A stretch of 64,000 nt of DNA, taken from positions 128,001-192,000 of the forward strand of contig CAVYRH010000008.1 in NCBI GenBank assembly GCA_963770835.1, given 5' to 3'. The stretch comes from an uncultured Pseudomonadota bacterium (lineage in GTDB: Bacteria > Oederibacteriota > Muellerivitia > Muellerivitales > Muellerivitaceae). Under the pieces are notes generated by a model. The model ran no database searches. It was given only the letters and a program-made list of their open reading frames with translations, and had not been told where the DNA came from. Below are positions 11,603 to 39,128 of the stretch, in pieces. Both the position numbers and the translations under genes were made by a program. Every line of letters begins with the position of its first letter. Within the stretch, counting starts at the first letter, position 1.

Positions 11603-11632
11603 TTGTCCAATGCAGGTCCCCGTCGTGGACAA
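11603..11632 (+). repeat. 30-bp palindromic site, copy 1 (TTGTCCAATGC-AGGTCCCC-GTCGTGGACAA)
   Basis: Related copies at 12396, 34650, 37043, 39102. Confidence 0.8.
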
Positions 11633-11670
11633 GCTTTTATCCCACAGCAGACGTGCCATCAAAAAAGTTC

Positions 11671-12321
11671 TTACAGATCATATTTCAACCCTATGTCGAA
11701 GGATTCAAAGTCATAACCTTGATATTCCTTATTGAGGATGCCGTTCCAATCCCACTGAAAGAGGAGATAGGTTTGGGGCCAAAGCTTGACGTCCATCCCA
11801 ACCCCGGCCAAAAGGGCGATGCCCACCCCGCTATCCGCCGGACTGGTGAGAGAAAAGGGATAGCCGTAATTCGGATTGGTAGTCGTCAACCCTTCCAGGT
11901 TGAAGAGGTGCATTCCCGTGCCGAACGAGGCATAGGGCACCACCGGATTATCCTGGGCGAGGAATTTGAATTTCCCATTGATCAGGAAAGCGAGATCCTC
12001 CTCCCCTCCCCCCGAGACGGTCGCCCCCCCATTGTTTTTGTAATAATCAGGATTCACCGGCAAAGAGTAATAACGGACGTTGAATACCAGGGAGAAGAGC
12101 TGGGAGAGATCGACGCCCAAACCCAAACCGAAATTGTATCCCGGGTTTACCTCGGTTTCGTCACTGGCGTCCGTGGTTGTCCCGCCGCCAAAAACATAGA
12201 GGGAGTAGCGGTGCTCCACGGGGGCCGGGGCGTTGGGTGGAGGAAGGTTGTCGGCTCGCAAACAAGAAAATGAGATCACGACCCAAAGAATAAAAACCAA
12301 GAATAGTGATCGGCGGTTCAT
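11671..12321 (-). CDS. Outer-membrane beta-barrel protein (OmpA/OmpW-like membrane domain)
   Basis: Signal peptide; alternating beta strands, VPYASFGTG, C-terminal IGLKYDL. Confidence 0.8.
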   Translation of the reverse strand: MNRRSLFLVFILWVVISFSCLRADNLPPPNAPAPVEHRYSLYVFGGGTTTDASDETEVNPGYNFGLGLGVDLSQLFSLVFNVRYYSLPVNPDYYKNNGGATVSGGGEEDLAFLINGKFKFLAQDNPVVPYASFGTGMHLFNLEGLTTTNPNYGYPFSLTSPADSGVGIALLAGVGMDVKLWPQTYLLFQWDWNGILNKEYQGYDFESFDIGLKYDL

Positions 12322-12395
12322 GAATCCCCTTTTACAACTCTCAGAATCGAATGACATGGCTCCCGATATTAAACGGTTTTCAAATTCTCTTGTTC

Positions 12396-12425
12396 TTGTC
12401 CACTACACCTCCCCGTCGCGGACAA
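12396..12425 (+). repeat. 30-bp palindromic site, copy 2 (TTGTCCACTAC-ACCTCCCC-GTCGCGGACAA)
   Basis: Same arms and orientation as copy 1. Confidence 0.7.
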
Positions 12426-12439
12426 AGTTTTAGCCAGGC

Positions 12440-13732
12440 TCAGCTTTTACGCATTTCCAGGAAACTCTTGAAATCCATCGTGACCTGGTCGGCATAGGCG
12501 TGGGCGATCACCTGCAGCATGCTCAGGAACTTCTTTTCCCTTCCCTTCAGGCGCTTCCAGGTCTTGGCGGCGAAATTTTTGCGCGCCCGCGCGTGGGCCC
12601 GGGCCAGCACCTGGCCCATCTGCTGGGTGACGCCGGCGTCCACCTTGCCGAAGGGCAGGGCGTCCTTATAGGGCGACCTCTCCCTCACGCAGTATTCGCC
12701 GTCCTCCAGCTTCAACCAGCCCAGCCAGGGGTCCACGTCCTTCCCCAGGGCCTGGTAGGCCAGCACGACGCGAAAGGCGTGGTGGCCGCCGCAGGCTTCC
12801 TTGGTTTTGTGCTTGTACTTCTTCGGCAGGTAGGCCCAGGGGCTGGGTTTGGGTTGGAGCTTGATGTCCAGGATGCGGTAATACCCCTTGCCGCCCGCCT
12901 CCACCTCCGCCAAAACGTAATAGCGGTTGAACCCGTAGGATCCCACGCCCTGGTGAAGGCGCAAGGCGATGTCCTTCACCTCAAAATAACCGATTTGCTT
13001 GACGGGCCAGGGTTTCAATTCTTCGGCGTAATCCTTCAGGGCCTCCCGGATCTTGGTGTCCATTCCCGGCGGGATCGTGTCCAGGTCGGGGTTTTTCCGG
13101 TTGAAGACCAGGTCCCCCTGCTCCTCCACCGTCCAGCGGTCCAGCATCCTTTTGCGGTCGTGCTTGGCATAGACGTGCTCCAGGAAATGCCTCAAGCCGC
13201 CCTTGGCGGTCTTGTGGTCCATGGGCTCCCAGGCGCAATCCGGGTCCTTGGCGCAGCGTTCCACTTCCCGCAGGTATCCCTTGGCGCAGGCCTTCACCAG
13301 CTCCCGGCGGTGGTGGGGCTTCAGCTTGTTTTCCCTCGCCAAGAGGTTCAGGCTCACCACCAGCCGCCACAGGTCGAACTGGTAGTCGGCCACCACGCTT
13401 TCGTCAAAATCGGTCACGTCGTACACCAGCCGGCCCTTGGCGTCGGTGAAGGCGCCGAAGTTGCCGCAATGCATGTCCCCACAAAGCCAGGTGCGGTTGC
13501 CCATTTTGCCGCCGAAATACTTGGTCAGGTGGGTCGCGCCGAAATCGGCCCAATACAAATGGTCCGTTCCCCGGAAAAAAACGAAGGGCGACGACGACAT
13601 TTCCTTGAATTTCTCGTCGCGCCTTACGGGAATGAGCTTATGGTTGAAGAGGTCGATCTCTTTCCTCACCCAGTCGGGGCGGGGTTGGGGGAAAAGAACG
13701 TCGGCGTGGGGGTCCACGAAAGGCTTAGCCAT
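12440..13732 (-). CDS. DUF2252-family protein (kinase-like fold)
   Basis: MSSSPFVFFRGT, WLCGDMHCGNFG, YDVTDFDE, GVGSYG..RYYVL, LARAHARA. Confidence 0.88.
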   Translation of the reverse strand: MAKPFVDPHADVLFPQPRPDWVRKEIDLFNHKLIPVRRDEKFKEMSSSPFVFFRGTDHLYWADFGATHLTKYFGGKMGNRTWLCGDMHCGNFGAFTDAKGRLVYDVTDFDESVVADYQFDLWRLVVSLNLLARENKLKPHHRRELVKACAKGYLREVERCAKDPDCAWEPMDHKTAKGGLRHFLEHVYAKHDRKRMLDRWTVEEQGDLVFNRKNPDLDTIPPGMDTKIREALKDYAEELKPWPVKQIGYFEVKDIALRLHQGVGSYGFNRYYVLAEVEAGGKGYYRILDIKLQPKPSPWAYLPKKYKHKTKEACGGHHAFRVVLAYQALGKDVDPWLGWLKLEDGEYCVRERSPYKDALPFGKVDAGVTQQMGQVLARAHARARKNFAAKTWKRLKGREKKFLSMLQVIAHAYADQVTMDFKSFLEMRKS

Positions 13733-14038
13733 GGTTTATCCAATCTGGAAAAAATGAAGCCACAAGTATCAAGATACGCCCGTCATTCGCGGTGGACAAC
13801 GGCAAAAAACGGTTCCACGCCGCCCGCACTCAAGCGGGCGAAGCGTTGTGCAGAAGTCGCGCGAATCGGCGAAGCCGAAGAGCAAAAAAGGACTTCTGCG
13901 AAGCCGCCCGCCCTCAAGCCACTTTGCCGAGGCCACCAGCCGAGGCATAAGACTTGAGTGTATTGGAGCCAATATAAAAAAGGCTCCAATGAAAACTATT
14001 TTAAATTTGTGGAACCGCGGGTGGGGGATTCGGGAGGC

Positions 14039-14542
14039 CTATTCCGAAACCCAGGAAACGGGCAGGTTGGATTGGGGCACAGCCACCACGGACTGTAAAA
14101 AAGTGGTAAAAACGGAATTGCAGGTGACCCCCCCGGGAGTCGGGCAAGTTTCCCCTCCGTTGTGATAAAGCACTTGAATATGGTCCGGATAGGTGCAAAC
14201 GGAGACGATCACCGGCGGATTCGCCGAGCACATGCAATCGAAGACAACGGTTTGGCTTAATTCCAGGATCATTTGGGTTGAAAAATTGACCGCGGGAACC
14301 GCCGTTCCGGTCCCATTGACGTTGGTCCATTGCGTTTGGTTTTGGATCACATAATCTCCGCTGGCGACTCCCCAAGCGGGCGTGGAGGCGAGTGGCGTGA
14401 AACCGCAAACCGGGGTGGCAATGACGGTGGGGCTAGGGGTCGCGGTGGGCATCGGGTTCGGGCCGACGCCAATCGGTTGTTGGCAAGCCCAAGGCGCAAT
14501 GCACAAAACGATGAACACCGATGGGATAAGGAACCTTTTCAC
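14039..14542 (-). CDS. Lipoprotein with PrcB-C-like domain
   Basis: GTG start, lipobox-like PWAC; VIQNQTQW...PAVNFSTQMIL. Confidence 0.55.
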   Translation of the reverse strand: MKRFLIPSVFIVLCIAPWACQQPIGVGPNPMPTATPSPTVIATPVCGFTPLASTPAWGVASGDYVIQNQTQWTNVNGTGTAVPAVNFSTQMILELSQTVVFDCMCSANPPVIVSVCTYPDHIQVLYHNGGETCPTPGGVTCNSVFTTFLQSVVAVPQSNLPVSWVSE

Positions 14543-14794
14543 GCGCCGCCTCCGGTTTAATATTGCCTTGATTATACCACTCAAAAAACATCCCCCAACG
14601 GAACAGCCAATTCCCAAACCGCTTAACCTTTCTCTCCGTATAGTGAACCGGCCTTCTTATTCCCGTTTAATCCTGAAAACAAACCGCAAAAACACCAAAT
14701 ATTCATAAGGCAACCTTAAAACCGGCCCAAATAGCTTAGCGATTCGAGTGGCTGGCTTGAGGTTCTTCTTGTTTGGATGCGGCTTTTGAACCGC

Positions 14795-16612
14795 CTATCT
14801 CCTTCGAGCCAGTAAAACCCCGGAACCTGATTTGATTTGCAATTCCTGTCCCACCCGGATCGCGGAAACGTCGGAAAAAACCAGCCTCACCTTCACTTTA
14901 TCGTTGGAAAACTCCAAAACCATGTCTTTCGGCAAAACCCGGTTCCTGATCACATCGTTGTAATTATATTTCACCAGCCGGTCGGCTAATGTCCCCACGG
15001 GTATTTTCCCCAGGGTTTGGTTCCCATATTCGACCAGGAGGTATTGGCTTTGGATTGGGAATTCAAGGACATAGCCTGTTGCATTCTGATTTCCCGGACG
15101 CTTGGGGTTGGCGCCTTGGTTAAATTGGTTAAAGCCGAAATTTTGCTGCCAATCATAACCGGCAATGTCTCCGATCAAGCTGGTTTTCCAGGCGTGGTAA
15201 TAAGTTCTCCCGCTATAAGGATTGTTGGGGAAATATTTCACCGGGTCCAGCCCGAACCAATCCATCAGTTGGGGTAAATGGGAGAGACTGTTCTCCTTGT
15301 CCCAGTTCAACCCCCGTAATTCCTCCGGGAGCCAATCTCGGAGAGGTTTCAGGCCGTACTCATAGGCCATTTGGCGGAAATCCCAATAAATCCTGTTTTG
15401 GGTTTTGGCGTCGGGTTGGGGAGAAACTTTGACCAACCGCCCATTTTTTAATAATCCAAATTCGATCAGGTCCTGTTTCAGCGCGTCTTGTCGGTCCTGG
15501 CGGGTAAGCTGTGCCGGGCTCAAAGGGCCCACGGAAGTGACGCCTAACATCACCACGAGGGAGAGAACGGGCCTTTTCCAACCCGGCTTTTTTACCAAAA
15601 GAAAATAAAAGAAAACCGCTCCCAGCCAAACCATCGTGAACAAGGAATCATAATCCCAGACGTTCCAACCTCCCCCGTGATGCATGACGAGCGGGGCAAA
15701 TGCCATGGCTGACAGCAGCAGGATCGAGACGAGGGCAAGGATCTTGGGATAAAGGGCCATCCAAGGACGGTTTTTCCCCAAGCGAAGGATGGCTATTAAG
15801 CCGATGGAATAAAAGGCCAGGGCAAAGAAGAAAATCCTTTCATCAACAAGGTAGTTTTGAAACCACCGGACCGCGAAGTACCCATGGAAGGATTTAATGA
15901 ACTCAAAGAGATAACCCCCGCCAAGGACCAGAAGCGCCCCGGCCAACCACCCAGAGCCCGTTAGGGTGTTTCCGGCTCCCTTTTCTTCCGGGGCATAAAA
16001 GCTTTTTTCCAGGACCCCCAGGAGATACCAGGAAATAACGAGGTAACGGGTTATGGGGAAAATAAGTCCTTGATTGCCCGAGTATTGCAATTGGGGAAAG
16101 AAAGGGAGCAGGGACCGCACCACTCCATCCACCAAAAACAAAAGAAGGTAGGCCGCGGCCAGGCCTTGGATCAAATTCACCACAAAGGCCCAAAGCTTTT
16201 CCGGTGAATATTCCCTCTGGGTCAGGGGGAACAACAGGGCGGTCAAAGAAACAAAATGTAATAACCGTTGGTGGGAAGGGCTCAGGGAATAATCGCTGTT
16301 AAAATAAAAATAAGCGGCTTCCACCACCGCGAAGCCCAAGGCATAAGCGGCCGATCGGTACTTGAAGTTTTTTAACCGCGGGCTCGCGAGCCATTGATGG
16401 AGAAGCGCGAAAAAAGATATTCCGAGGAGAAAGCTGTCCAGCAGGTTATAAAAATCGATAGAAACGGAAAAAGTTGGAAAGTATCGGGAGAAAAACATCT
16501 GGTATCCCGACCCGATGGCGTAGAGAAAACCGAAAAGAAGGACAAAGGGATATTTCTTTACATAACTAAAAAACCCGATTCCGGGGTAAAACCAAGGGCC
16601 TTGGCGGTCCAT
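14795..16612 (-). CDS. Polytopic membrane protein (DUF4153-like)
   Basis: ~11 hydrophobic segments, then TSVGPLSPAQLTRQDR...LIEFGLLKNG and a soluble tail. Confidence 0.65.
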   Translation of the reverse strand: MDRQGPWFYPGIGFFSYVKKYPFVLLFGFLYAIGSGYQMFFSRYFPTFSVSIDFYNLLDSFLLGISFFALLHQWLASPRLKNFKYRSAAYALGFAVVEAAYFYFNSDYSLSPSHQRLLHFVSLTALLFPLTQREYSPEKLWAFVVNLIQGLAAAYLLLFLVDGVVRSLLPFFPQLQYSGNQGLIFPITRYLVISWYLLGVLEKSFYAPEEKGAGNTLTGSGWLAGALLVLGGGYLFEFIKSFHGYFAVRWFQNYLVDERIFFFALAFYSIGLIAILRLGKNRPWMALYPKILALVSILLLSAMAFAPLVMHHGGGWNVWDYDSLFTMVWLGAVFFYFLLVKKPGWKRPVLSLVVMLGVTSVGPLSPAQLTRQDRQDALKQDLIEFGLLKNGRLVKVSPQPDAKTQNRIYWDFRQMAYEYGLKPLRDWLPEELRGLNWDKENSLSHLPQLMDWFGLDPVKYFPNNPYSGRTYYHAWKTSLIGDIAGYDWQQNFGFNQFNQGANPKRPGNQNATGYVLEFPIQSQYLLVEYGNQTLGKIPVGTLADRLVKYNYNDVIRNRVLPKDMVLEFSNDKVKVRLVFSDVSAIRVGQELQIKSGSGVLLARRR

Positions 16613-16716
16613 ACAGACTCCTTGAGCGGCAAATATTTAAAAGAAACCATAAACGTGGCGGCGATGTGTTCAGCGGAGAATAGCGCTCCGTTTTTAACTG
16701 ATCAACCCTTAACCCG

Positions 16717-19700
16717 CTACCTCAATACCAGCAACTTACTGATCCGGCGGCCCTGGGTGGTGGTCACCACCACATAGTAAAGGCCGTTGGCCAGGGCGGT
16801 TCCCCCGTTGTCGGTCAAGGGCAGGCTCAACTGCGTTCCCGCCGCCGCCTTGGCAAGGTTGATTTCCCTCACTTTCCGGAAAGCCAGGGTGAACACCTGG
16901 ATCTTTACGCTGGAACCCGTCGTCACGTAGCCCCGCAGGGTGACCGGCCCGGGCCCGGTCGCCGGGTTGGGATAAATCCCGATGACTCCGCCGGGAGTGG
17001 AAGTGATCGTTGGCGTAGAAGTAAAAGCCGGAGTAAGCGTGATCGTCGGGCTGAAGGTCGGTGTGGATGTGGGTGTGACGGTCCAGCTTGATGTTGGGGA
17101 AGCGGTCGGTGTGCTGGAGGCTGTCGCCCTGGGCGTCCCCGTGGGCGTCGGCGAGGCCGTTAAGGTCGGGCTCCGGGTGGGTGTGGGGCTGGGGGTCTGC
17201 GTGGCGCTGGAAGTGGGGGTAAAGCTGGGGGTTGGTGTTCCACTTGGGGTCGGCGTCCCACTCGGCGTCGCCGAAGCCGTCAAGCTGGGGGTGTTCGTCA
17301 CCGTGTAGCTGAACAGGGGGGTGGGGGTGATGGTCCCGGTTGCGGTGGCCGAGGGGGTCAGCGTGGGAGTGCGGGTCACGGTGAGGGTCGGCGTAGACGT
17401 CATTGAACTGCTTGCGGTGAAGGTCGGCGAAGCCGTCATCGAACTGGTGGCCGAGGCCGTCGGCGTGGCCGTGGGGCTTTTCGTGGGGGTGGCCGTGGGG
17501 CTGGCCGTAGCCGTCAACGTATTGCCCGCTGTGGGGCTGGGCGTGGCGGTCGCGCCGGACGCCGCGTTGGCCATTTTCCAAACCCCTCCGCCGAAGGTGC
17601 CCACGTAAGTGGCGTTGTTGCCGAAACCCACGTGCTGGATGGAGCTGAAAGGCAGGGTGGTCACCCGGGCCCAGGTGCCGCCGCCGTCGGTGGTCTCGAA
17701 AAAGCCCTGGTTCTCGGTTCCGTAATAAACGGTGGTGGGGTTGGAGGGGTCGATGCTGGGGGCGTAGCCGTAGGGCGTGTGGCCGGGGGGCATGGCCATG
17801 AGGGTCCAGCTGGTGCCCCCGTTGGTGGTGCGGTAACAGCCCCCGCTTGAGGTCTTGGCGTCCTGGGCCGCCAGGAAGATCGTGGCGGGGTTGGAAGGGT
17901 TCACGTCGAAGTCCGTAGGGTAATAGGGCGCCACCCCGTTCACGTTGGCGGCGATGTTGGTCCAGGTGCCGCCGCCGTTCGTGGAAAGAAAGAGCCCCCC
18001 GGGGTTGGCGTAACCCGACTGCGCCGACAGCAGGCAGTAAAGGTTGCTTCCCACGATCTTCAACGAATAAACGTCCTTGTTGGTTCCGATGGTGGGCTGG
18101 GTGGCGCAGGCGGCCCAGCTGGCGCAATTGTTGGCGGATTTATAGACGCCCTGCCCCCAGAGGGCCGTGTAAAAGACCTGGCTGACCGGGTCGTAAACGA
18201 TGGAAGTGTCGGGCGCGGAAGGCAGGCCCGTGGCCGAATTGGTCCAGGTTCCGCCATAGTTGGTGCTCTTGATCACCCCGCCTGTGCCGGCCTTGCCGAT
18301 AGGGTTGGAATGGTCCAGGTCGTGCAGGCTGGAAACCGCCGCGAAGACCGTACCGGCGGTGGCGTTGAAGGCCAAGTGGTAGAAGGTTTCGGTCCATCCC
18401 GAGGGGAAAGAAGCGTCGTTACGGCGGGCCGTGTTGTGCCAGGTGGCCCCCGAGTCGCCGGACCAGCAAAAGCCGATGTCCGAGGCGCAGATATAGTTGT
18501 AATTGGCGTTGTTGGGGTCGAAGGCGTATTGGAAAACGCTGGTGACCTCCAGCCCCCGCGAGGACCAGGCCTGGCCCTGGGAGGGCGGCGCGGTCCCGGC
18601 GAAGTTGGAATAGGCCTCCGTCCAGCTCACCCCGGCCGTGTCGCTCTTGAAGGTCTCCCCCAGGTCGCTGAACATCACCTGGCTGGAATTCGCAGAATTC
18701 ACCCCCAGCCCGTCCACCGGCGAGCCCCAACCCGAGAAGCTCAGGTCGAAATCGATCCACCCGTCAAAAAGGTTGGCCACGGGGGAAGCGTCCACGAATA
18801 CCTGGGCCCAGGAAGTCCCGCCGTTGGTGGTCTGCCAAACGGTGCGGTTATTGTTGTTGGTGGCGTAGGCGGTGCTGGTGTCGTTGTCCGCGCCCGCCAC
18901 CATGGCGAAGGTGTCGGCGTTGCTGGAAAGGGTCCAGGCGGCGGCGTTGGTGGAGGTATAAAGCTCGTTGGTGTTGGCGTCGATGGCGAAAAGCCGGGTT
19001 CCCCCCGCCGTTCCCGTGCTGGCCCCCGTGAACCCCAGCACGTTGGCCGGGGTGGACAACCCCGTGTTGGCGGCGGCCCAGCTACTTCCCTCGTTGGCCG
19101 ATACGAAAACCCCCGCCGAGGTGCCCACGTAACAGGTGCGGTTCCCCACCGGCGTGGATTGGTCCACCATGAACCCGCTCACATAGCCGGAAGTTCCCGT
19201 TCCCGCGCTAAAACTGGTGCCCCCGTTGGTGCTCACCCAAACGCCGTTATCCGTCCCGATCAAAATGAAATTGGCGTTGCCCCGGTCGATGTAAATGAGG
19301 GTCACCCTTCCCCCCGTGTTCCCCCAGGCGGGCCAGGGGGCCGGGTTTGCGCCGGACACCACCGACCAGGTCAACCCGCCGTCGTTGCTCACCAGCAGGT
19401 TGGGCGGGTTGTTTTGGGTGTCCTGCTGGGCCCCGAAGCCATAGACGATGTTGGCGTTGGTGGGGTGGAATGCCATGGGGCACATCACCCCGTCGTTGTA
19501 GCCGTAATCCACCGCGGTGCTGATCTGGTAGAAATCCAGCATGGCCCAGGTGTTCCCGCCGTCCGCGCTGCGGTACCAGCCCGACATGTCACAGCCCACA
19601 AAGCGCAGGTTGGAATTAAGGGGAGAAATGGAAGGCGCGTATTGGGCCCCGCCGCCGCCCATCCCAACCGTGGTCCAGGTTTGGGCATGCAGGAAGTCCG

Positions 19701-19791
19701 GGCAAAGGGCGAGGAGGCCTGAAAAGGCGAGGGCCCCTATCCAGGCGGGGAAAGAACCCTGTCCCGGGGTATGAAAGGCGCGATAGGGCAT
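16717..19791 (-). CDS. Secreted BNR/Asp-box beta-propeller protein (GH74/xyloglucanase- or Vps10-like) with Thr/Pro stalk and T9SS-like C-terminal domain
   Basis: VGCDMSGWYRSADGGNTW and many SxxGGxTW Asp-boxes; TPT stalk; IYPNP...LANGLYYVVV...KLLVLR. Confidence 0.85.
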   Translation of the reverse strand: MPYRAFHTPGQGSFPAWIGALAFSGLLALCPDFLHAQTWTTVGMGGGGAQYAPSISPLNSNLRFVGCDMSGWYRSADGGNTWAMLDFYQISTAVDYGYNDGVMCPMAFHPTNANIVYGFGAQQDTQNNPPNLLVSNDGGLTWSVVSGANPAPWPAWGNTGGRVTLIYIDRGNANFILIGTDNGVWVSTNGGTSFSAGTGTSGYVSGFMVDQSTPVGNRTCYVGTSAGVFVSANEGSSWAAANTGLSTPANVLGFTGASTGTAGGTRLFAIDANTNELYTSTNAAAWTLSSNADTFAMVAGADNDTSTAYATNNNNRTVWQTTNGGTSWAQVFVDASPVANLFDGWIDFDLSFSGWGSPVDGLGVNSANSSQVMFSDLGETFKSDTAGVSWTEAYSNFAGTAPPSQGQAWSSRGLEVTSVFQYAFDPNNANYNYICASDIGFCWSGDSGATWHNTARRNDASFPSGWTETFYHLAFNATAGTVFAAVSSLHDLDHSNPIGKAGTGGVIKSTNYGGTWTNSATGLPSAPDTSIVYDPVSQVFYTALWGQGVYKSANNCASWAACATQPTIGTNKDVYSLKIVGSNLYCLLSAQSGYANPGGLFLSTNGGGTWTNIAANVNGVAPYYPTDFDVNPSNPATIFLAAQDAKTSSGGCYRTTNGGTSWTLMAMPPGHTPYGYAPSIDPSNPTTVYYGTENQGFFETTDGGGTWARVTTLPFSSIQHVGFGNNATYVGTFGGGVWKMANAASGATATPSPTAGNTLTATASPTATPTKSPTATPTASATSSMTASPTFTASSSMTSTPTLTVTRTPTLTPSATATGTITPTPLFSYTVTNTPSLTASATPSGTPTPSGTPTPSFTPTSSATQTPSPTPTRSPTLTASPTPTGTPRATASSTPTASPTSSWTVTPTSTPTFSPTITLTPAFTSTPTITSTPGGVIGIYPNPATGPGPVTLRGYVTTGSSVKIQVFTLAFRKVREINLAKAAAGTQLSLPLTDNGGTALANGLYYVVVTTTQGRRISKLLVLR

Positions 19792-20003
19792 GTCTGTCCC
19801 TTAGGTTGGAAAAGTTCTCGGTTCTTGCCTTCAAATTTTAACACCGATTTCCAAACCGGCAGGACAAAGGACAAAGGAATAAGGGACAGGCGTTATACCC
19901 TGGCTAAAAATGAGGCATCGGGGGCGGTTCGGGGGGAAAGGGCCTGCCCTGCGGAACTTCAGGTTAGCAGGGCTGCACATGACTGGGACCTTTGTTTAGA
20001 TCC

Positions 20004-20569: not shown

Positions 20570-20579
20570 CCCTACCTCC

Positions 20580-20600
20580 GGTATGACTTTTTATCATACC
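20580..20600. promoter_or_regulatory. Probable antitoxin autoregulatory operator
   Basis: GGTATGA-N7-TCATACC directly upstream of the antitoxin RBS. Confidence 0.6.
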
Positions 20601-20671
20601 TTCAATTTATCCAAGGGGGTGCCGGTTGTCAAGGATTGGCCGGGAGTCAGGCCCCTTTTCGACTGCTTTTT

Positions 20672-23882: not shown

Positions 23883-24079
23883 GTAGTGGTCAGTTTTAAA
23901 ATACCACTTCACCCTCACCCCGCCCTCTCCCCTCGAGGGAGAGGGAAATTTAATAAAACCATCGCCCTTTGGCTTTGGTTTTGTGGGTACATAAGGGATT
24001 TCCCCTATGAGAGCCGTTTGGGAGATGGGTAGGGTGAGGGGTACTTTTGGTTTCTTCGTAAATCAAATTGACCCACTAC
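23883..24079. mobile_element. MITE-like element with GTAGTGG(G)TCA(G/A)TTT termini carrying CCCTCACCCC-type REP hairpins
   Basis: Left GTAGTGGTCAGTTT, right TCAAATTGACCCACTAC; internal CCCTCACCCCGCCCTCTCCCCTCGAGGGAGAGGG. Confidence 0.6.
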
Positions 24080-25942: not shown

Positions 25943-26028
25943 GGCGGGGGGATTTGATCGGCCGGACAAAGAAAGGGGAAGAACTTTCTTTTTCGGAACT
26001 ATGCACTTGGCGTACTTTAAGTCAAAAA

Positions 26029-26120
26029 CCCTCGCCCCTTGGGGGAGAGGGTAGGGTGAGGGGTGACTTAGCCGTCAAATCCACCCTCATCCCGGCCTTC
26101 TCCCCTCAAGGGAGAAGGGG
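26029..26120. repeat. Pair of CCCTCACCC/GGGAGAGGG REP-like hairpins
   Basis: CCCTCGCCCCTTGGGGGAGAGGGTAGGGTGAGGG...CCCTCATCCCGGCCTTCTCCCCTCAAGGGAGAAGGG; relatives near 23911, 32344, 53755. Confidence 0.75.
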
Positions 26121-26290
26121 AAAGCAACGGCAAATGGCCTCGCTTAAATGGGTGACGTCAAAGCCATAGTTCCGTTCTTTTTTTAGGCCTGGCCCCGTTT
26201 ACCGGCGGAGCCGGGCCAAGCCGCCTTGCCCGGCGGCTCTTTCGCCGTTGAATCCCTTGACTTCCTAATTGCATATGCAAGAATATATGC

Positions 26291-26941: not shown

Positions 26942-26979
26942 AGAAGGTCCTGGCCGGTTATGAAGGAACTTCAGGGCCG

Positions 26980-30096: not shown

Positions 30097-30114
30097 AAAT
30101 CATACCCTCCGATT

Positions 30115-30858
30115 TTAACTTGCAACTTTTTTCAAACACCATTCGCAATCGCACTCCACCTCGTGGAACACTACCGTAAAAAAAATCGACCCCCAAAACC
30201 GCATAATAATTACATGTTCTTTTGGCGTGTCGGGCCGATAACCATATTTGTAAACAAAGATATCCTCATGAACACCAGCCGCCGTTATTTCTTAGAGATG
30301 TCCTTTTAAATGTTCAGGCAACGGAACACCCGGTGGATAAACATTCGTTACAAACTGGTGATTGGAGGGTAGTGTTTTTTTGAAATTAAGATAATAAATT
30401 CCACGAGCTATTTTCAAAACGACTCGGTCGATTCTCGGCCCATCGATTGGGTAGAACATTTTTCTTTGGGGAAGAATAATGCCGGTAACAGTTCTCCTTA
30501 AAAAATATTGGGTTTTATTCATAATTTTTGAAAACCACCTAGTCTTGTCAGGATATTTCAACATTTGATTTCTAAGGTCTCGGAACAAAGCCAAGCCTCC
30601 CGGACTCCGATTTATCACCAAAGGAGCAAGGATCATTGCGAAATATTGTTCGTCAAGTTTGTATTGTCCATTACACCCTTGGTGAGCTGGCGCTTTAGGC
30701 AATCTTCTTTTTAACTTTCCGTTTTTTCTGTATTCCTTTGGATAAAAAACCTTAGCTGGAACATGGTCGTCACTCTGTCTGTCAGCCTCGTTAGTGCTTT
30801 TGGGATCTATTGTTTGACCGCAAAGATAACAAATTTGGTTTTCTTGAGGTGCTTCCAT
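30115..30858 (-). pseudogene. HNH-like zinc-finger nuclease family protein interrupted by an in-frame TAA at 30292-30294
   Basis: CYLCG...SDDHVPAK...HQGCN; same frame continues EITAAGVHEDIFVYKYG...MRFWG...FHEVECDCEWC to TAA at 30115, just ahead of the kinase RBS. Confidence 0.65.
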
Positions 30859-31144
30859 AGTCGCACTTTCATTTAAATTACTCCGGACATAAAAAAACCC
30901 GGGATTTCTCCCAGGTTGCGTTTGAGTCGTAGGTGTTGTTTTAGTAGTGGGCCACGCGCTCGTGAGGAGAAAGCTTTTAGTAGTCCTGCCAGTAATTATA
31001 GTTGGCTTCACTTTAAGATCAACCAAAAAAGTATACACCGGTATACTTTTTAACATGCCCAAAACAAGCTCTTTTAAAACCAAATATCTTTTTGGCTGCT
31101 TCCCCGGTGGCGGCAGCAACCGTAACCGGCGGAGACATCCCCCT

Positions 31145-32284
31145 CTATCCCTTGCGGTAGGGATATCCCTTCATCTTGTTCTTGAACTCGGTGATGGGCG
31201 GCGTGTTGTTTTCGGTCGAAATATCCCTGAATTCCTCCAGCTTTTGCCTCTGCTCATGGCTCAAGTTCGTCGGCACTTCCACCATGGCCTTCACGAACAA
31301 ATGGCCCTGGCCCGGCCCCTTGGGGTTCTTGATGCCCTTATCCTTCAGGCGAAAGACGAGGCCGGTTTGGGTGCCGGAGGGGATCTTCATCTTGACCGGG
31401 CCTTCCAAGGTGGGCACCTCGATCTCGGCGCCCAGGGCGGCCTCGGCCAGGGTGACGGGGACCTCGCAATGAAGGTCCAGCCCCTCCCTTTTAAAGAAAA
31501 CGTCCGGCTTGACGCGCAGGTAGACGAAAAGGTCCCCGGCGGGGCCGCCGTTGGGGCCCCCTTCCCCCTCGCCGCGGAACCGCAGTCGGGCGCCATCCTC
31601 GGCCCCGGCGGGAACCTTCACGGAAAGGGTTCGTTCTTTTTCCAGGCGACCGTTGCCGTGGCAGTTGGGGCAGGGGGAGCCGGGGATGCGCCCCTGGCCG
31701 TGGCAGCGGCTGCAGGCGCGGGCGAAGCTGAAAAAGCCCTGGGATTCGTGGATCTGGCCCGACCCGTGGCAAACGGGGCAGACCACCTGGCCCGAACCGG
31801 CCACCGCCCCGGTGCCATGGCAAACATCACAGGCCGAGAGTTTCCGGAACCGGATTTCATGGGCCGTCCCGAAGGCCGCGTCCTGGAAAGTGACGTCCAA
31901 ATCGAAACGCAGGTCGTTGCCCGTTTCGGCCTGGCCGCCGGAGCGGGCGCCGCCGCCGAACATGTCGCCGAAGATATCCCCCAGGTCGGGCGCTTCCTGC
32001 GGGCCGTAACCGGGAGGGGGGGCGCGGAAACCACTGGGCCCTGCCCCGGGAAAGCCGGCGGGCCCGTCGTGCCCGAATTGGTCGTACTCGGCTTTCTTTT
32101 TGGGGTCCGAGAGGATGCCGTAGGCCTCGTTGATGTCCTTGAACATCTCCTCGGCTTTTTTGTCCTTGGGATGGAGGTCGGGGTGGTATTTTTTCGCGAG
32201 GGTCCGGAAGGCGTTCTTGATCGCCTCGTCACTGGCCCCGCGCGGAACGCCGAGCAAGTCGTAATAGTCTTTTTTAGGGGCCAT
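31145..32284 (-). CDS. dnaJ: Molecular chaperone DnaJ
   Basis: DYYDLLGV...KYHPD J-domain, G/F region, four CxxCxGxG repeats, GDLFV C-terminal domain. Confidence 0.95.
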
Positions 32285-32312
32285 CGTTGTTATTACCGTT
32301 CATATGGGGTTC

Positions 32313-32495
32313 GGCAGTGGGTCAGTTTGAAAAAAACACTTCACCCTCATCCCAACCTTCTCCCCTCAAGGGAGAAGGAGCGAGTCTCCCTCTCCCTTGA
32401 GGGGAGAGGGCGGGGTGAGGGTGGTTGTTCCTGGGCCGCATTACATGCCTTTTCGCAGGTCAGGCTCGCAACGACAGCTAAACTGACTTACTACC
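32313..32495. mobile_element. Second MITE-like element with the same termini as 23883-24079, carrying REP hairpins
   Basis: GGCAGTGGGTCAGTTTGA ... CTAAACTGACTTACTACC. Confidence 0.55.
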
Positions 32496-32590
32496 TACAA
32501 ACAGGGGTTTCTTAAGATGGTTTAGGCTAACACGTTCCCCCGGACTTTCCCATGCTTCCGGGGGGACGCCGGCCGTCAAACCGATAAAGT

Positions 32591-34484
32591 TCAATGAATT
32601 CCCAAAACGCCCTTTGTCTTATCGGCAGTGGATTCGACTTCATTGGCCGTATTGACCGCGCTTTGAACATCCTTCACCCCATCCCCAACGGCCTTGAGCG
32701 GGTCCTCTCCCTTCGCTGAAGCTTCGGGCGCCTGCTTTTCCTTCTCGGCTTGGGCCGCTGCTTCCCCGGGACTCAATTCCGTCACCTTTTCCACCAGGCT
32801 TTGGCCATCCGGGTGGTGCTGAATTTGAAGGATCAGGCCGACGGGCCGGGTGGTTGTGGCCACCCCATCCCTCTGCTTGGTTTGCTCGCCCTTCACCAAG
32901 AATACCCCCGAACCACCCTCCATCTGCAGAAACTCGGCCTGCGGGCTCTGGAAGACATAAACCAGATTTTGTTCCCCTATCTGTTTGAAAAAAGCCGGCC
33001 CGAAATACTGGCTCCGGAAGGTGGGAAAATAAGATTTGAGCAAATGGTTTTTGAGATATTCCAAATTGTCGGATACGGTATCAGCAGACATATTGAAAAA
33101 ATTGCCTGCGATATCGGTGGCAAAATCGGCCTCATTCGCGGCCCAGGAAGGAACAACCTGGGCCGAGTTCGAAGTGTGAAGTTTGGAGTTCGAAGTTGAA
33201 ACCAAAGGCCCCTTCGAACCTGAAACCGGACTCAAGGCAGAATTAGGAATTGAAACCGACGGGGCCGGATTCGGCGCTACCTGTCCGGAATGGACAATGC
33301 GGTACCCCATCCGGGTCACAAGCCGGATGCCCTGGTGGATAAGGAAGCTCCCCGCCCAAAGCACCAGGAAGGCCACCAGGAAGGTGGCCCAAGTGGTGTT
33401 TTTGACCCCCATCTTCTGGAACAACCCGGTGATGGCGTGGGGCCCTTGTGAACCCGGGAACAATCCGGTTGGCGATATGCCCGGGGGCTTGCTTTATCTG
33501 TTTCCCGAGGATATTCCCCACAATGGACGCGCCTACCTGTGCATGGGTAGAGGCGGAATCTGGTACCGGGGTTTGCTTTAATTCAGAGGCTAATACCCCC
33601 TTCGTTCCAACAGCGCTCACAGGGAAAGACCCCTGTGTACCCTCAAAACCAAAGCCCTTTTTGAAAGGGGGATCAAAATCTTCCGGTTTATTACCCCCTT
33701 GCACCCATTTGACCAGCCCCTTTACCTGGGGACCCGTCATTTCACGGGACAGGATGACCGGCATTGCCTTCTCCACCAGGGCTTGGACATCCCCAAGGGA
33801 CCTTTTGTCCCAGAGGGCGGTCAGCGGATAGGCGACCTTCTCTAAAAGCTGCCATTTTTCACGATTTTCGGATATGCGATTTTTAAGGGTTTCCGCATCA
33901 TTGTCCAACGGTTGGACAATATCATTATTCCCCTTATTTTTTGCATCCCCTTCGGTCCCCTTGGACTCGGATTGCTCCAAGTGCTCCAGGATCAACCTCC
34001 GGGAGGTGAGGTTCAGCACCCCTAATATTTGCCTGGCCCGCCAGATCCAGGACTTGGCCACCCCCACTTTAGCCGCAATCTCGTCTTCGCTAAGCCCAAG
34101 GCCCGTCGCCAGGTAAGGTTCCCAGCTTTCGTAATCGTCAAGCCAGTAAGGCTTGGAACCCTTATTGGAGGTGATGGCCCTTAGTTTCGCCTCCTCCAAG
34201 GGGCAATCCACCTCCTCAACCTCCATGTGGGCCCAGCCCAGCCTTCCGGCGGCGAGGAACCGCCTTTGGCCCTCAATAATGGCAAAAGGAGATTTACTTT
34301 CCCCCTTCCAGGTGATGATCCGGGGGGGCTTCCGACCGGACTTCATGAAGGCCATGAGGTCCTGCATTTCGGATTCGTTTTTGTATTTGCGGGGGTTCCA
34401 ATCCGGCACGTAAAGCTCGGACCGGGGGACCATCCGGATGACGGGTTGGGTAACTTCCGGGGCGGGATTCTGGGCGGTTTCCAT
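32591..34484 (-). CDS. ParB/Srx N-terminal domain protein probably fused (+1 frameshift near 33440) to a TM helix and a TraE/VirB8-like domain
   Basis: WNPRK...IIEGQRRFLAA ParB box and HTH-like LSEDEIAAKVGVAKSWI; overlapping ORF 32591-33463 lacks a good start. Confidence 0.6.
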
Positions 34485-34649
34485 AGGGCCTCCTGATTAT
34501 GAATTTCCGTGAATGGAAAAAGATAAACCGGGAAGTTGGGGCCCGTCAATTTCGAAATGGATTTGAGCTGATTTTTAGGCGGGAGGAAGGCTGTTCTGCA
34601 CTTTTTATGGCCGTTAATCCGGCCAACCCGGCGGTGGAATGCGCCTAGG

Positions 34650-34680
34650 ACATCCAATGCGGGGTCTCCGTCGTGGACAA
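34650..34680 (+). repeat. 30-bp palindromic site, copy 3
   Basis: ACATCCAATGC-GGGGTCTCC-GTCGTGGACAA. Confidence 0.7.
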
Positions 34681-34709
34681 AAAAAAGCCGGGCTCAGGAG
34701 AGCCCGGCT
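34679..34709 (-). terminator. Rho-independent terminator of the 34734-36830 gene
   Basis: AGCCGGGCTC-loop-GAGCCCGGCT followed by a T run on the minus strand. Confidence 0.75.
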
Positions 34710-34733
34710 ACCATGTTAAACAAATCTAAATCC

Positions 34734-36830
34734 TCAAGGTGAAATCACCGCCACCGCGCTGGAACCGGCGACGGCCACAAGGATCCCATTCCCGTTGGTC
34801 ACGGAGGACCAGTACTGGGAGCCGGGGAGGGTTTCATTGGTCCAAGTAACCCCGTCGGGCGAAGTCGCCGCCACCGCGCCGCCATAAATAACCGCCACAA
34901 ACAACCCATTCCCATAGGTCACCGAATCCCAGGACTGTGTGCTGGGGAGGGTTTGGGCCGTCCAAGTGATCCCGTCGGGTGAGGTTGCCGCCTTCGCCGC
35001 GCCGCCATAAGCAACCACCACAAACTCCCCATTCCCGTAAGTGACGGCGTACCAAGCCCCCGTACTGGGGAGGCTGCGGGTCGTCCAAGTGATGCCGTCC
35101 GGTGATGTCGCTGCCACCGAGTTATTGGGGGTTATCGCCACAAAAACCCCGTTCCCGTAGGCCACGGAGGTCCAGCCCGCCGAACTGGGCATGGTGCGGG
35201 ACGTCCAGGTGACACCGTCCGGCGAGGTGGCTCCCACGGGACTGCCGATTCCACTGGCGAGGGCGCCAGCCGCCACAAAAACCCCGTTCCCATAGGCCAC
35301 TGATTTCCAGTTCTGTGCGGCGGGGAGGTTATGGGCCGTCCAGGTGACGCCGTCCGGTGACGTCGCTTCCGCCGTAGTGCCACTCAAACCACTGCCGGAT
35401 GCGACCGCCACAAACTCGGAATTCCCATAGGCCACTGACTCCCAGGCCTGTGAGCTGGGGAGGGTTTGGGCCGTCCAATTAATCCCGTCGGGCGAAGTCG
35501 CCGCCACCGTGCTGGGTCCGGCGGCAACCGCCACGAAAATACCGTTCCCGTAGGCCACGGATGTCCAGTTCTGCGAGCTGGGAAGGGTTTCAGCCGTCCA
35601 AGGCATGGGTGTGGGGGTGATCGTCGGGGTGAAAGTGGGGGTGGAAGTGGAAGTCCCCGTGGGGGTGGTGGTGGCTGTGTAAGGGACGGCCGGGGTGGAA
35701 GTGGCCGTGGCGGTCGGCCCGCCCGGGGCGCCGGGGCTGAACTTGACCGGGTATTCGTAACCGCCGGTATTGGCTTCTTCCACGTAGATGTTTCCCGAGG
35801 CGTCCACCTTCACGTCCCAGGTGAAGACGTTGCCCGCCAGGTCCAGCTCGTCGCAGAAGGTGCCGTCGGTCTTGAAGACCTCGATCCGTCCGTTGGTGGC
35901 GGTATCGTCCACCACGTAAACCAGGTTGCCCGGCCCCACGGCTAGGCCCATGGGCGTGTAAAGCTGCCCCTGGCCCGACCCGCCGTTGCCCCAGCCGCCG
36001 AGGGCCTGGAGGCTGGGGCTGTAAATGGCCACCGACTGGCCCTGGCCGTCCAGCACGTAAAGGTTGTCGTTGGAATCGGTGGAAAGCGCGTTGGCGTAAG
36101 CCAGGAAGCCGTTGCTGGAAACCGAGGCCAAATCGGCGCCCGCTGTGGTCAGCTTGCGGATCAGGACATAGCTATTGCCGCCGGCCACCACGTAAAGGTT
36201 GTTCTGGGAATCGATGGTCATGCAGTAGATCTGGCGCATCGCGCCGTCCGAATTGGAACTGTCATTGAAGGCCCCGATGGAAACCCCCGAGGAATTGAAT
36301 TTTATGATTTCGGAGGTGGTGAGGGTGGCGCCGCAGCTGCCGTCATTGGTGATGTTATTGTAGGCGTAATAAAGGTTCCCGGAGCTGTCGGCGGCCATTC
36401 CTCCGCAGGCGCCGTAGTCCAGGTTGCTCACGGAGTTGCCGGAAGGATAAAATTCCCGTTGGTAGGGCCCGGACAGGCTGAATTGCTGCACCCGGTTGTC
36501 GAGGCAGGAGAGCGGGCCCTTGCCGGCATCATAGACGTAAAGATAGCCATTGGCCGGGTCGATGGCGAGGTCGTTTCCGTATCCCAAGCCCCCGGCGGCA
36601 TAAACGCCCGCCACGGTGACGGATAACCCGGCGCCGGTGGTTCCGATTTGAAAAGAGGCCGAGGGCGCCGTCAGGGGACATGCCACGCTGGTGGCCGGGC
36701 CGCCGCCGCTGTTATTGTTCCCTCCCCCGCCGGAGGGCGAGGAAGGCATGGATTTTTTGCCGGGGCAGCCGATGATTAAAAAGGTAAATCCAACCAGGAG
36801 CAAAAAAATCCCCGCGATGCGGCACTTCAT
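34734..36830 (-). CDS. Lipoprotein with NHL/SMP-30-like propeller, Thr/Pro linker and seven WxSVAYGNGxFVAV...SPDGxTWT repeats
   Basis: LIIGC lipobox; repeats visible in the translation. Confidence 0.82.
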   Translation of the reverse strand: MKCRIAGIFLLLVGFTFLIIGCPGKKSMPSSPSGGGGNNNSGGGPATSVACPLTAPSASFQIGTTGAGLSVTVAGVYAAGGLGYGNDLAIDPANGYLYVYDAGKGPLSCLDNRVQQFSLSGPYQREFYPSGNSVSNLDYGACGGMAADSSGNLYYAYNNITNDGSCGATLTTSEIIKFNSSGVSIGAFNDSSNSDGAMRQIYCMTIDSQNNLYVVAGGNSYVLIRKLTTAGADLASVSSNGFLAYANALSTDSNDNLYVLDGQGQSVAIYSPSLQALGGWGNGGSGQGQLYTPMGLAVGPGNLVYVVDDTATNGRIEVFKTDGTFCDELDLAGNVFTWDVKVDASGNIYVEEANTGGYEYPVKFSPGAPGGPTATATSTPAVPYTATTTPTGTSTSTPTFTPTITPTPMPWTAETLPSSQNWTSVAYGNGIFVAVAAGPSTVAATSPDGINWTAQTLPSSQAWESVAYGNSEFVAVASGSGLSGTTAEATSPDGVTWTAHNLPAAQNWKSVAYGNGVFVAAGALASGIGSPVGATSPDGVTWTSRTMPSSAGWTSVAYGNGVFVAITPNNSVAATSPDGITWTTRSLPSTGAWYAVTYGNGEFVVVAYGGAAKAATSPDGITWTAQTLPSTQSWDSVTYGNGLFVAVIYGGAVAATSPDGVTWTNETLPGSQYWSSVTNGNGILVAVAGSSAVAVISP

Positions 36831-37042
36831 TGTTTGGCCTTTCGGATAAACATTAAAACGTTTGGCCAAACAATCGGTTTGGGAAAATGTCTTAGCTCAT
36901 GGAGTATAGGCGTTTTTGTAAGTATTAGATACAGTTAGCATATTCAAAGCCGGGGCATCCCGGTGAAAGCCGGGAAATCATCAGCGGCTTTTGTCCAGTT
37001 ACCGCGCGCGGAAGGATTTCGGGGGGAACGAAGGGTATTGGG

Positions 37043-37072
37043 TTGTCCAATGCGGCTCCCCGCCGTGGACAG
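37043..37072 (+). repeat. 30-bp palindromic site, copy 4 (IS110 target)
   Basis: TTGTCCAATGC-GGCTCCCC-GCCGTGGACAG abutting the IS left end. Confidence 0.8.
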
Positions 37073-37145
37073 GTAACATGATGGCCATTCCACCGCCGGG
37101 ATTAAACTATTCCCGGTGAGTAGCCACTCATAAGGAGGAATGACC

Positions 37146-38216
37146 ATGAAACAGATTAGCAAAAAAGGATTCCAAGGCAAGGAGGTATCCAAGCGGGACG
37201 CCGTGTTTGTGGGGCTCGATGTCCACAAACGAAGTATTTACGTAGCAATCAGGATCAATGGAAAGGAAACCGGAACCAAGTCTGTGCCCGCGGATTGGGA
37301 AGCTGTGGTGAAGGTTCTGGAGCCTTACCGAAAAGGGTTAAAAAAGGTCGTCTACGAGGCAGGACCTACTGGCTTTGGCTTGGCACGTCGCCTTCGGGAA
37401 GTGGGATACCCATTGGACGTCATCGCCCCGAACAAAACACCTCGTGTAGCTCAGTTGGAAACAAAATCCGACCGGTTGGACTGCCGCAAGCTGGCGGAGT
37501 ACGCCGAAAAGGATCTCTTGCGGGCTGTGGCGATCCCAACCCTCCAGGAAGAAGCGGATCGGCAAGTGGTGCGTTTGAGAAACGCGATGGTGGAACAAAA
37601 ACGCAAGGCCAAACAAAGGATCAAAAGCTTTTTCCTCCAATATGGATTCAAGGAACCTAGAGGGCTGGATTACTGGACCCACGAGGCCATCGGAGTTTTG
37701 CGGGATATGGAACTGCCGCCGGCCCTGAGATTCACGTTGGATAGCCTATTGGAAGATCTCTTTTACTTTGATAGGCAGCTTAAAGACGTGAACATACGTT
37801 TGCGGGTCATGATGAAGGACAAGGCCTACGAGAAAAAGGCTAAGATCCTCAGGTCCCACCCGGGAGTGGGTGAAGTAACGACCCTGCAAATGTTAACGGA
37901 GATTTACCAGCCGGAGCGCTTTCAAAACGCCAAACAGGTGGCGGCTTACGTGGGGTTGGCCCCAAGGATCAGGCAAAGCGGAGAAACTCGAAAGGAAGGC
38001 CATTTGCAGAAGGCCGGAAAAGGAACCTTGAGGGCTACCTTAGTTGAAGCTGCCTGGTCATGGATTCAAAAGGATACCCAGGCCAACCGCGTTTTCCGCC
38101 GGTTCGTCCGTAATACGGGGCATGTCAACAAAGCGATTGTGGCAATGGCTCACAAGCTTTTGATTCACCTTTGGACTATGTTGGTTCGAAAGGAAGTTTA
38201 TCGGCCCATGCTCTAA
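37146..38216 (+). CDS. IS110-family transposase (DEDD recombinase)
   Basis: FVGLDVHK, VYEAGPTG, KSDRLD, PGVG, YVGLAPRIRQSG; AAGGAGG RBS. Confidence 0.96.
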   Translation: MKQISKKGFQGKEVSKRDAVFVGLDVHKRSIYVAIRINGKETGTKSVPADWEAVVKVLEPYRKGLKKVVYEAGPTGFGLARRLREVGYPLDVIAPNKTPRVAQLETKSDRLDCRKLAEYAEKDLLRAVAIPTLQEEADRQVVRLRNAMVEQKRKAKQRIKSFFLQYGFKEPRGLDYWTHEAIGVLRDMELPPALRFTLDSLLEDLFYFDRQLKDVNIRLRVMMKDKAYEKKAKILRSHPGVGEVTTLQMLTEIYQPERFQNAKQVAAYVGLAPRIRQSGETRKEGHLQKAGKGTLRATLVEAAWSWIQKDTQANRVFRRFVRNTGHVNKAIVAMAHKLLIHLWTMLVRKEVYRPML

Positions 38217-38219
38217 AGA

Positions 38220-38400
38220 GGTTTCAGCCTCAGTTTCGTGATTCGACCCCTTAGGAATGACCACGAGTTTTAGCTGTGCCTTAGGCACGTTGGACAGGTG
38301 GTGGCTTCCCTCAGGATTATCGAATTCTTATCTTGTGCCTCGAGCACGAATAGCAGCGTGAATCCACGAAACCAAAAGGCTGACCGTAGGAGAAAATTGG
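38220..38400 (+). ncRNA. Putative bridge/seek RNA in the IS right end
   Basis: Multiple hairpins; contains TGGACAGGT (38291-38299) matching the left target junction. Confidence 0.55.
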
Positions 38401-38446
38401 ACTTGAGGAATGGCCTCATAGCAGGAATGGCCTCATGGTTTTAAAA

Positions 38447-38791
38447 CTATTCAAACAGGATAATCTTAAGATTTTCGATCAGCTTTGCCTTATTCAACGG
38501 ATTTAACTCGCCCAAATGCTTGACGAACCGGCGGTTATCAATGGCCCGGATTTGATCGACTAAGATGTCGGAATTTTTTTTAAGGCCCATTCCTTTTTTG
38601 GAAAGGTGAACCCGGAGGATTTCCGCCCCGCGGATGACTTGTGTGGTGATGGGGCAAACAATAGTGCTGGGGTGTTGGCCGTCATTTAAAAGGTTGGTTT
38701 GGAGGACGACGACCGGCCTTGTCTTGCCCGGCTCCGTGCCGAACCGCGGGCTTAGGTCGGCCAGGTAAACATTGAATTTCCTAATCTTCAT
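38447..38791 (-). CDS. PemK/MazF-family toxin
   Basis: YLADLSPRFGTEPGKTRPVVVLQT...DQIRAIDNRR. Confidence 0.93.
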   Translation of the reverse strand: MKIRKFNVYLADLSPRFGTEPGKTRPVVVLQTNLLNDGQHPSTIVCPITTQVIRGAEILRVHLSKKGMGLKKNSDILVDQIRAIDNRRFVKHLGELNPLNKAKLIENLKIILFE

Positions 38792-39027
38792 TCGAGGGTT
38801 GCTTCCTCAAGCTTTTCCATCTCCCCGAGGATGTCCATGGAGTTCTTCCGCGTGAGCAGGGATTCCTTCAGCAGTTTTTTCCTGAGCCCTTTTCGGCGGT
38901 TGAAAGCGTTATAAAAATCCAACGCCTCATTGATGTAGGCATTTCGGGACATATGAAGCCGTTTGGTTAGGATTTCTACATCCTCGAAGATTTCACCTTT
39001 AATTTTTAGGGACAGGACCTTGGTCAT
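38788..39027 (-). CDS. RHH-type antitoxin
   Basis: LSLKI...MSRNAYINEAL; ATGA overlap with toxin. Confidence 0.82.
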   Translation of the reverse strand: MTKVLSLKIKGEIFEDVEILTKRLHMSRNAYINEALDFYNAFNRRKGLRKKLLKESLLTRKNSMDILGEMEKLEEATLE

Positions 39028-39039
39028 TCCGGGCTCCTT

Positions 39040-39070
39040 TGGAGGTATATACGAATAGTATATACCTCCA
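39040..39070. promoter_or_regulatory. Probable TA operator
   Basis: TGGAGGTATATAC-GAATA-GTATATACCTCCA perfect 13-bp inverted repeat. Confidence 0.65.
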
Positions 39071-39101
39071 ATTTCAAAAGGAATAAATAGTTTTAACCTG
39101 G

Positions 39102-39128
39102 TTGTCCAATCCAGTCCTCGCCGTGGAC
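39102..39128 (+). repeat. 30-bp palindromic site, copy 5
   Basis: TTGTCCAATCC-AGTCCTC-GCCGTGGAC. Confidence 0.7.

Follow-up and report, generated by a model that had tools for sequence, protein, structure and literature searches.

Symmetric 30-bp sites delimit exchanged gene cassettes in candidate division FCPU426 and may be the substrate of a minimal serine recombinase

To our knowledge, two gene-cassette systems have been described, integrons and dif modules, both of which use tyrosine recombinases. In integrons and attC clusters without integron-integrases (CALINs), co-oriented single-gene cassettes each carry a site, toxin–antitoxin pairs occur among the cargo and many arrays are enzyme-less (PMC4889954), and the attC sites are targeted by IS1111-type insertion sequences (ISs) and by group II introns (PMC3001079). 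In Acinetobacter dif modules, dyad-symmetric sites of 28–30 bp (pdif), acted on by XerCD, bound shuffled accessory modules that include toxin–antitoxin pairs and are exchanged between replicons (PMC13141974). A third point of reference is provided by large serine recombinases, such as phage integrases and the CcrAB enzymes of the staphylococcal cassette chromosome, which combine catalytic and recombinase domains with a central-dinucleotide geometry (PMC3783163, PMC5499577). Here we describe palindromic sites bounding single genes in a 64-kb window (contig C8, positions 128001–192000) of a 4.58-Mb genome from a family of uncultured soil bacteria in candidate division FCPU426, hereafter G000, together with a short serine recombinase encoded elsewhere in that genome.

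The system resembles integrons/CALINs and dif modules in its working but lacks the defining characters of both. No IntI, attI or Pc promoter was found, exchange appears to be central in the site, and the arrays are scattered over some 30 clusters. attC is a hairpin of variable length with R and L boxes, in which structure prevails over sequence, whereas the site described here is a fixed 30-bp duplex palindrome, conserved in sequence and without covariation. pdif sites have an 11-6-11 layout and alternating orientation, and their modules move in pairs (PMC13141974), whereas the present sites have a 14-2-14 layout, are all direct, are unrelated to dif, and differ in sequence from the host's own dif-like palindrome. 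Compared with large serine recombinases, the enzyme is short, without zinc ribbon or coiled coil, and instead of attP and attB sites of 40–50 bp there is one short symmetric site type, present at about 100 copies per genome and bounding enzyme-less single genes. The inverted doublets and RAYT-flanking repeats typical of repetitive extragenic palindromes (REPs) were not found here. A literature search of incomplete coverage showed no description of this system.

A weight matrix with a score threshold of at least 20 retrieves 85 copies of the site in G000 against none in the reversed genome; inclusion of gapped copies brings the list to 99, and about eight further sites are split by an intron. 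Read in gene direction, the 30-bp consensus is TTGTCCACGACGGG GA CCCGTCGTGGACAA. The sites are clustered, with 17 of them in the 28-kb contig C15, and their orientation is uniform within each of the 17 site-bearing contigs of G000, the site strand being the G-rich strand for 86 of the 99. Beyond G000, the pattern recurs in 27 of the 30 remaining family genomes and in the one sister-family genome, in none of 67 genomes from other orders of the phylum, and without a match in the viral contigs searched; its sequence is almost constant between genera. Among the 80 loci listed, the named lineage is candidate division FCPU426, some records being labelled uncultured bacteria and one Firestonebacteria. 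Site orientation in a relative, G004, follows the replication arms, flipping at dnaA and converging near the xer gene (contigs C1 and C2). A universal replication-arm rule is ruled out by another relative, G014, in which two sites of contig C4 point towards dnaA.

A co-oriented open reading frame ends within 120 bp of 79 of 91 sites, compared with 27 of 91 in an opposite-strand control, and the median gap is 21 bp. Inspection covered 62 segments between sites. A cassette begins with the right arm of a site, continues through a gene in the same orientation and ends with the left arm of the site that follows. Among the cargo (27 proteins scanned) are toxin–antitoxin pairs, a GNAT enzyme and a protein of beta-lactamase fold, besides many unknown proteins, and sites are confined to rows of such accessory genes. 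Identical cassettes of 891, 794 and 991 bp are repeated in G000 beside different neighbours, their identity breaking at the sites; for six G000 cassettes, the alignment with a locus elsewhere extends from site to site, one of them at 100% over 1020 bp in another genus, and a 1003-bp cassette is 100% identical in G000 and G004. Breakpoints around the flanked genes, when checked against the sites, coincide with them. Together with co-orientation within contigs and IS targeting of the sites, this bears out the original prediction, made from the window alone, of an undescribed gene-cassette system with its enzyme encoded elsewhere, and we regard the palindromes as very likely the sites of such a system.

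The position of exchange within the site was mapped on 497 unique sites, counting a flank as shared when 100 bp matched at 95% identity or more and dropping intron- and IS-flank pairs; this count replaced a looser one with distant flanks, which was noisy. Fourteen pairs have the downstream flank in common but not the upstream one, and every one of their 13 differences falls in the left arm; in 14 pairs for which the upstream flank alone is common, the right arm holds 35 of the 37 differences: arm variants travel with their own cassette. A variant at column 12 accompanies the upstream cassette and columns 17–18 differ with the downstream one, thereby bounding the exchange to columns 13–16. Columns 15–16 are GA in 474 of the 497 sites, columns 17–19 are more variable (column 17 is not C in 63 of 497) and columns 20–23 vary freely. 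Exchange at these central four bases around GA fits, on this comparison of sequences, the geometry of a serine recombinase and not the layout of a tyrosine recombinase; where arms of 11–13 bp around a core of 7–9 bp had been predicted, the site divides as 14-GA-14. Watson–Crick pairing between the arms equals the expectation for independence at all 14 positions (497 sites), and the stem is often broken at columns 20–23; since the arms show no covariation, the site is read as duplex DNA and not as a hairpin.

The candidate enzyme, P0001 (275 amino acids; G000 C17:12078-12905, outside the window), consists of Resolvase and Recombinase domains only and is the sole PF00239 match in a profile search. 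Nineteen proteins of 275–283 amino acids, sharing 68–100% identity, form one clade (support 100/99) that is separated by a gap from its next relatives, at no more than 59% identity. All 19 end just before the zinc ribbon, so that both zinc ribbon and coiled coil are absent, and the catalytic motifs, including the nucleophile serine, are invariant. The ratio of non-synonymous to synonymous substitution (dN/dS) is 0.08–0.16 in 7 of 10 pairs, the other three being saturated. A single-sequence fold prediction was unusable (predicted local distance difference test, pLDDT, 42); an alignment-based model of P0001 (pLDDT 82.7) matches serine integrases. The closest relatives, at 50–59% identity, are enzymes of about 510 amino acids whose genes end at tRNA-like sequence, and matches to CcrA/B profiles are weak and far below cut-off.

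Copies and fragments of the short enzyme whose 3′ end is in view adjoin a site in 14 of 14 cases, compared with 0 of 12 for the long relatives. In 12 of these the site lies 7–33 bp past the stop codon in opposite orientation; in the other two it is split by an intron or lies 144 bp past a premature stop. The enzyme gene converges on the tail of an array, and the adjoining site is an ordinary or variant copy. In G000 it sits with ArdC and RadC genes on a 7-kb segment between two sites; the site clusters of this genome show no conserved head gene. Taken together, the data point to the 275-amino-acid serine recombinase as the enzyme that probably drives cassette exchange.

In the mechanism proposed here, a dimer of the short enzyme, with its catalytic and recombinase domains, would bind the two 14-bp arms, with the central GA as the point of cutting. 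Directly repeated sites would then release a circle carrying one hybrid site, and the circle could be inserted at any resident site. The asymmetric GA would fix the polarity, so that all cassettes face one way, in keeping with an integrase reaction that yields products only when the central dinucleotides are aligned in parallel (PMC3783163). In a solved integrase, the recombinase domain covers 13 bp per half-site and the zinc domain bases 16–24 (PMC3783163); a zinc-less enzyme would therefore need about 14 bp per side, which fits a 14-GA-14 site. An integrase becomes promiscuous once its coiled coil is removed (PMC3783163, PMC5499577), from which a non-directional reaction may be expected of the short enzyme: without attP/attB distinction all sites would be equivalent, and arrays could grow wherever a site exists. 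The enzyme itself would ride a site-bounded mobile element, with its ArdC and RadC genes, that visits genomes, decays and leaves enzyme-less arrays behind. The many 3′ fragments beside sites suggest such visits followed by decay; alternatively, another enzyme may do the routine work. We lean towards the view that a minimal serine recombinase, having lost the directionality domains, is responsible for both excision and insertion of single-gene cassettes at a symmetric 30-bp site and spreads genes between genera of this uncultured lineage, and that this would be a third, independently evolved kind of cassette system.

Several observations weigh against the proposed mechanism. The two remaining differences of the upstream-sharing pairs fall at column 11, each inner bound of the crossover interval comes from one pair, and some of the 28 pairs share a member. 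Neither an excised circle nor an empty site was seen: contigs of runs X1–X4 over window positions 33000–41500 and the C15 array contained no site–site joint and no circle, at a low and patchy coverage that makes this uninformative. An intact short enzyme is present in 5 of 31 family genomes compared with sites in 28 of 31; it was not found in the site-rich genomes G012 (99% complete), G018, G023 and G071, and the site-rich G014 yielded only a long relative. An element that does no more than target the site, in the manner of ISs and introns, would also account for the adjacency of enzyme and site. Binding by an engineered integrase is about 25-fold weaker when the zinc domain is missing, and an integrase deprived of the coiled coil performs intermolecular integration poorly (PMC3783163), which makes insertion by the short enzyme alone doubtful. 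Finally, Xer sites tolerate one spacer mismatch (PMC13141974).

The short serine recombinase might accordingly be the integrase of one site-targeting element, with the cassettes being moved by some other host-wide enzyme, whether Xer, a different tyrosine recombinase or a so far unknown protein, a possibility that we consider rather unlikely. It would account for the disparity between 28 genomes with sites and 5 with an intact enzyme, for the ArdC and RadC genes adjoining the enzyme gene, for a site sequence almost constant between genera and for a G004 orientation that follows the replication arms; moreover, the site is already the target of three further mobile elements. However, a dif-like palindrome of its own, with an 11-6-11 layout, lies directly upstream of the single Xer in most of 17 loci, no cassette site lies within 6 kb of it in these loci, and the site-free genomes G009 and G022 likewise contain such a match. 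Of the 12 tyrosine recombinases of G000, six of which are island-type paralogues, one is encoded at a distance of 0.7 kb from a site and the others have none within 3 kb, and the best IntI match (TIGR02249) in this genome scores 44.6 bits against a cut-off of 265. Bases 17–19, which would lie within any 6–8-bp core, vary, and the length and GA centre of the site fit the domain content of the short enzyme. The original prediction had read the sites as those of a tyrosine recombinase, to be sought beside site clusters; that reading gives way to a central exchange around GA, a host Xer with a dif-like site of its own, the lack of IntI, a single tyrosine recombinase of 12 near a site and a short serine recombinase as the only site-tied recombinase.

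Two further explanations dispense with a duplex recombinase altogether. REPs are targets of IS110 and group II introns, and the present sites likewise receive such insertions, lie directly behind stop codons and share the G000 genome with two RAYT-like Y1 genes of 320 amino acids. A REP-like 3′ repeat or protein-binding site could thus spread alone, its apparent exchange being due to homologous recombination or gene conversion, but we give this very little credence: inverted doublets are absent, orientation is uniform in 17 of 17 site-bearing contigs, the arms do not covary, the RAYT-like genes lie at least 49 kb from any listed site, and the lipoprotein gene of the window has its own terminator. 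The prediction had named a REP family or binding site as its alternative, which is likewise disfavoured by the uniform orientation, the restriction of sites to accessory-gene rows and joins at the site centre. A single-strand mechanism, either HUH nicking in the loop of a hairpin or a hairpin reaction of integron type taking place at the replication fork, appears highly unlikely, if a little less so. In its favour, the palindrome is near-perfect, orientation is strongly biased, with a flip at dnaA in G004, and the site strand is the G-rich one for most G000 sites; on the other hand, arm pairing does not exceed the expectation for independence at any of the 14 positions, columns 20–23 often break the stem, the two G014 sites face dnaA, IntI is missing from G000, and no HUH gene is linked to sites except an IS200-like gene within one cassette.

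If cassette exchange by the short serine recombinase is confirmed, cassette capture would have evolved again, from phage-type integrases, and such arrays would be invisible to attC-based searches. The enzyme would provide a natural way of testing which functions depend on the zinc and coiled-coil domains, and, as a compact, cofactor-free and bidirectional recombinase with a loxP-sized site, a new recombinase–site pair for genome engineering. The arrays also offer a second setting for the questions of how cassettes arise and what brings IS110 elements as well as group II introns to cassette sites.

The window, in which no Rfam match was found, contains two small, partly decayed cassette arrays that lack an enzyme; all sites and cargo genes given below for them are on the minus strand. 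Five palindromes in a single orientation had been predicted and a site-like palindrome is indeed present at all five places, belonging to a family far above chance, although the pattern as originally written matches the window exactly once. The two-site cluster comprises a good 30-bp 14-GA-14 copy at its tail (11603..11632, matrix score 43.7) and a second good 30-bp copy (12396..12425, score 39.0) with a good left arm and a variant right arm (GA GGTGTAGTGGACAA). The three-site cluster has at its tail a decayed site of 31 bp (34650..34680; one extra base, left-half score 22.5) whose outer arm is ACATCC instead of TTGTCC, then a good 30-bp copy (37043..37072, score 38.2) with an IS at its outer edge, and at its head a decayed 29-bp site with a poor second arm (39102..39130; half scores 5.1 and 7.4). 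The sites lie close behind minus-strand genes as foreseen, with stop-codon gaps of 38, 14, 53, about 10 (IS discounted) and 26 bp.

Between the two sites of the first cluster, a 793-bp single-gene cassette carries an outer-membrane beta-barrel gene (11671..12357; 228 amino acids; PF13505, E 4e-6, just under cut-off), for which no DNA homologue was found among the loci compared. The neighbouring DUF2252 gene (12440..13732, minus strand) has its stop codon 14 bp before site 12396..12425; no upstream boundary site was found and it is a candidate cassette only. The right half-site near 13789 that had been thought to delimit it is at chance level, since ten or more positions in the window have a better left-half score and, outside sites, its 8-mer turns up about 4 times per 64 kb; moreover, no site lies near the homologue of the DUF2252 gene in G002. 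In the second cluster, a cassette of about 2.4 kb carries a lipoprotein gene (34734..36869; 711 amino acids with NHL/EPTP-like repeats) and its terminator-like hairpin (34686..34709, minus strand), which is distinct from the site. Related repeat genes are present in the C15 array of G000; in the absence of a full-length homologue among the DNA compared, mobility of the beta-barrel and lipoprotein cassettes is inferred from the site family as a whole. The toxin–antitoxin cassette consists of a MazF/PemK-like toxin gene (38447..38791; PF02452) and a putative antitoxin gene (38788..39027; 79 amino acids, no family match) that is kept beside the toxin gene in homologous cassettes. Homologues of this MazEF module occur in G004, G020, G023, G024, locus L061 and the C15 array; four of them start at a full site (L210, L211, L061 and C15) and five end just before one, so that the module, as proposed, is a site-delimited unit in relatives as well. 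An empty-site comparison at the window loci with five relatives gave no syntenic match across either cluster.

The IS at site 37043..37072 is an IS110-family element on the plus strand (37072..38436; 1365 bp; transposase 37140–38216), inserted at the arm end of the site. Contigs of runs X1 and X2 join position 37071 to 38437 and thus represent the empty allele, which justifies discounting the IS in the gap between toxin gene and site. Targeting of sites by ISs extends beyond the window: four of the five G000 copies of this IS110, and copies at two loci of a relative, lie at the arm end of a site. The 3′ non-coding part of the element contains TTGGACAGG, which matches the target and is a candidate bridge-RNA guide. 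A group II intron encoding a 455-amino-acid reverse transcriptase inserts within the site after about base 12 and hides the eight or so split sites (in G000, for example C3 near 106–108 kb, C2, C4, C16, C20 and C23; also locus L209). A second group II intron family, mostly without open reading frames, lies at most 2 bases behind the site in 21 of 497 cases.

Further observations concern the surroundings of the system. The order appears to use one divergent Xer with an 11-6-11 dif-like palindrome directly upstream (G000 C11:156053-157117; loci L011–L027), and the two arms of a conserved inverted repeat, about 35 bp long, enclose the xer gene. A 1475-bp unit starting at a cassette-site right arm combines cas1 (PF01867), a 111-amino-acid gene that is cas2-like by size and place only, and a 37-bp CRISPR-like repeat (G000 C3:47196-48670, C15:15755-17229 and C16:36001-37475; also locus L276 of G004). 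The repeat has 27 copies in G000, spaced 0.15–12 kb apart in clusters (C3 48–102 kb and 383–401 kb, C15 and C16), nearly all in one orientation and often intragenic, and is present in 6 of 31 family genomes; no short-spacer array was seen among the places listed. Several of its flanks are exact copies of other stretches of the genome that break at the repeat, and the unit possibly reflects Cas1–Cas2 capture of kilobase-long pieces.

Upstream of the three-site cluster of the window lie two tandem RibD_C (dihydrofolate-reductase-like) genes (40554–41752), and G004 has a RibD-like gene with a site on either side (L210 5669–6259). Directly behind the tail site of this cluster is a gene for a protein of 413 amino acids (33243–34484) with a weak ParB-like N terminus (E 3e-4). 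A separate dispersed repeat family, of the CACCCTCACCCC...CCCTCTCCC type, occurs in both orientations and is frequent in relatives; its copies in the window are at 23908–23946, 26024–26123, 32385–32423 and 53753–53844. The window also contains local duplications of 117–300 bp at 74–96% identity (25431–25720/28423–28742, 46120–46419/46743–47042 and 51772–52517/54520–55265).

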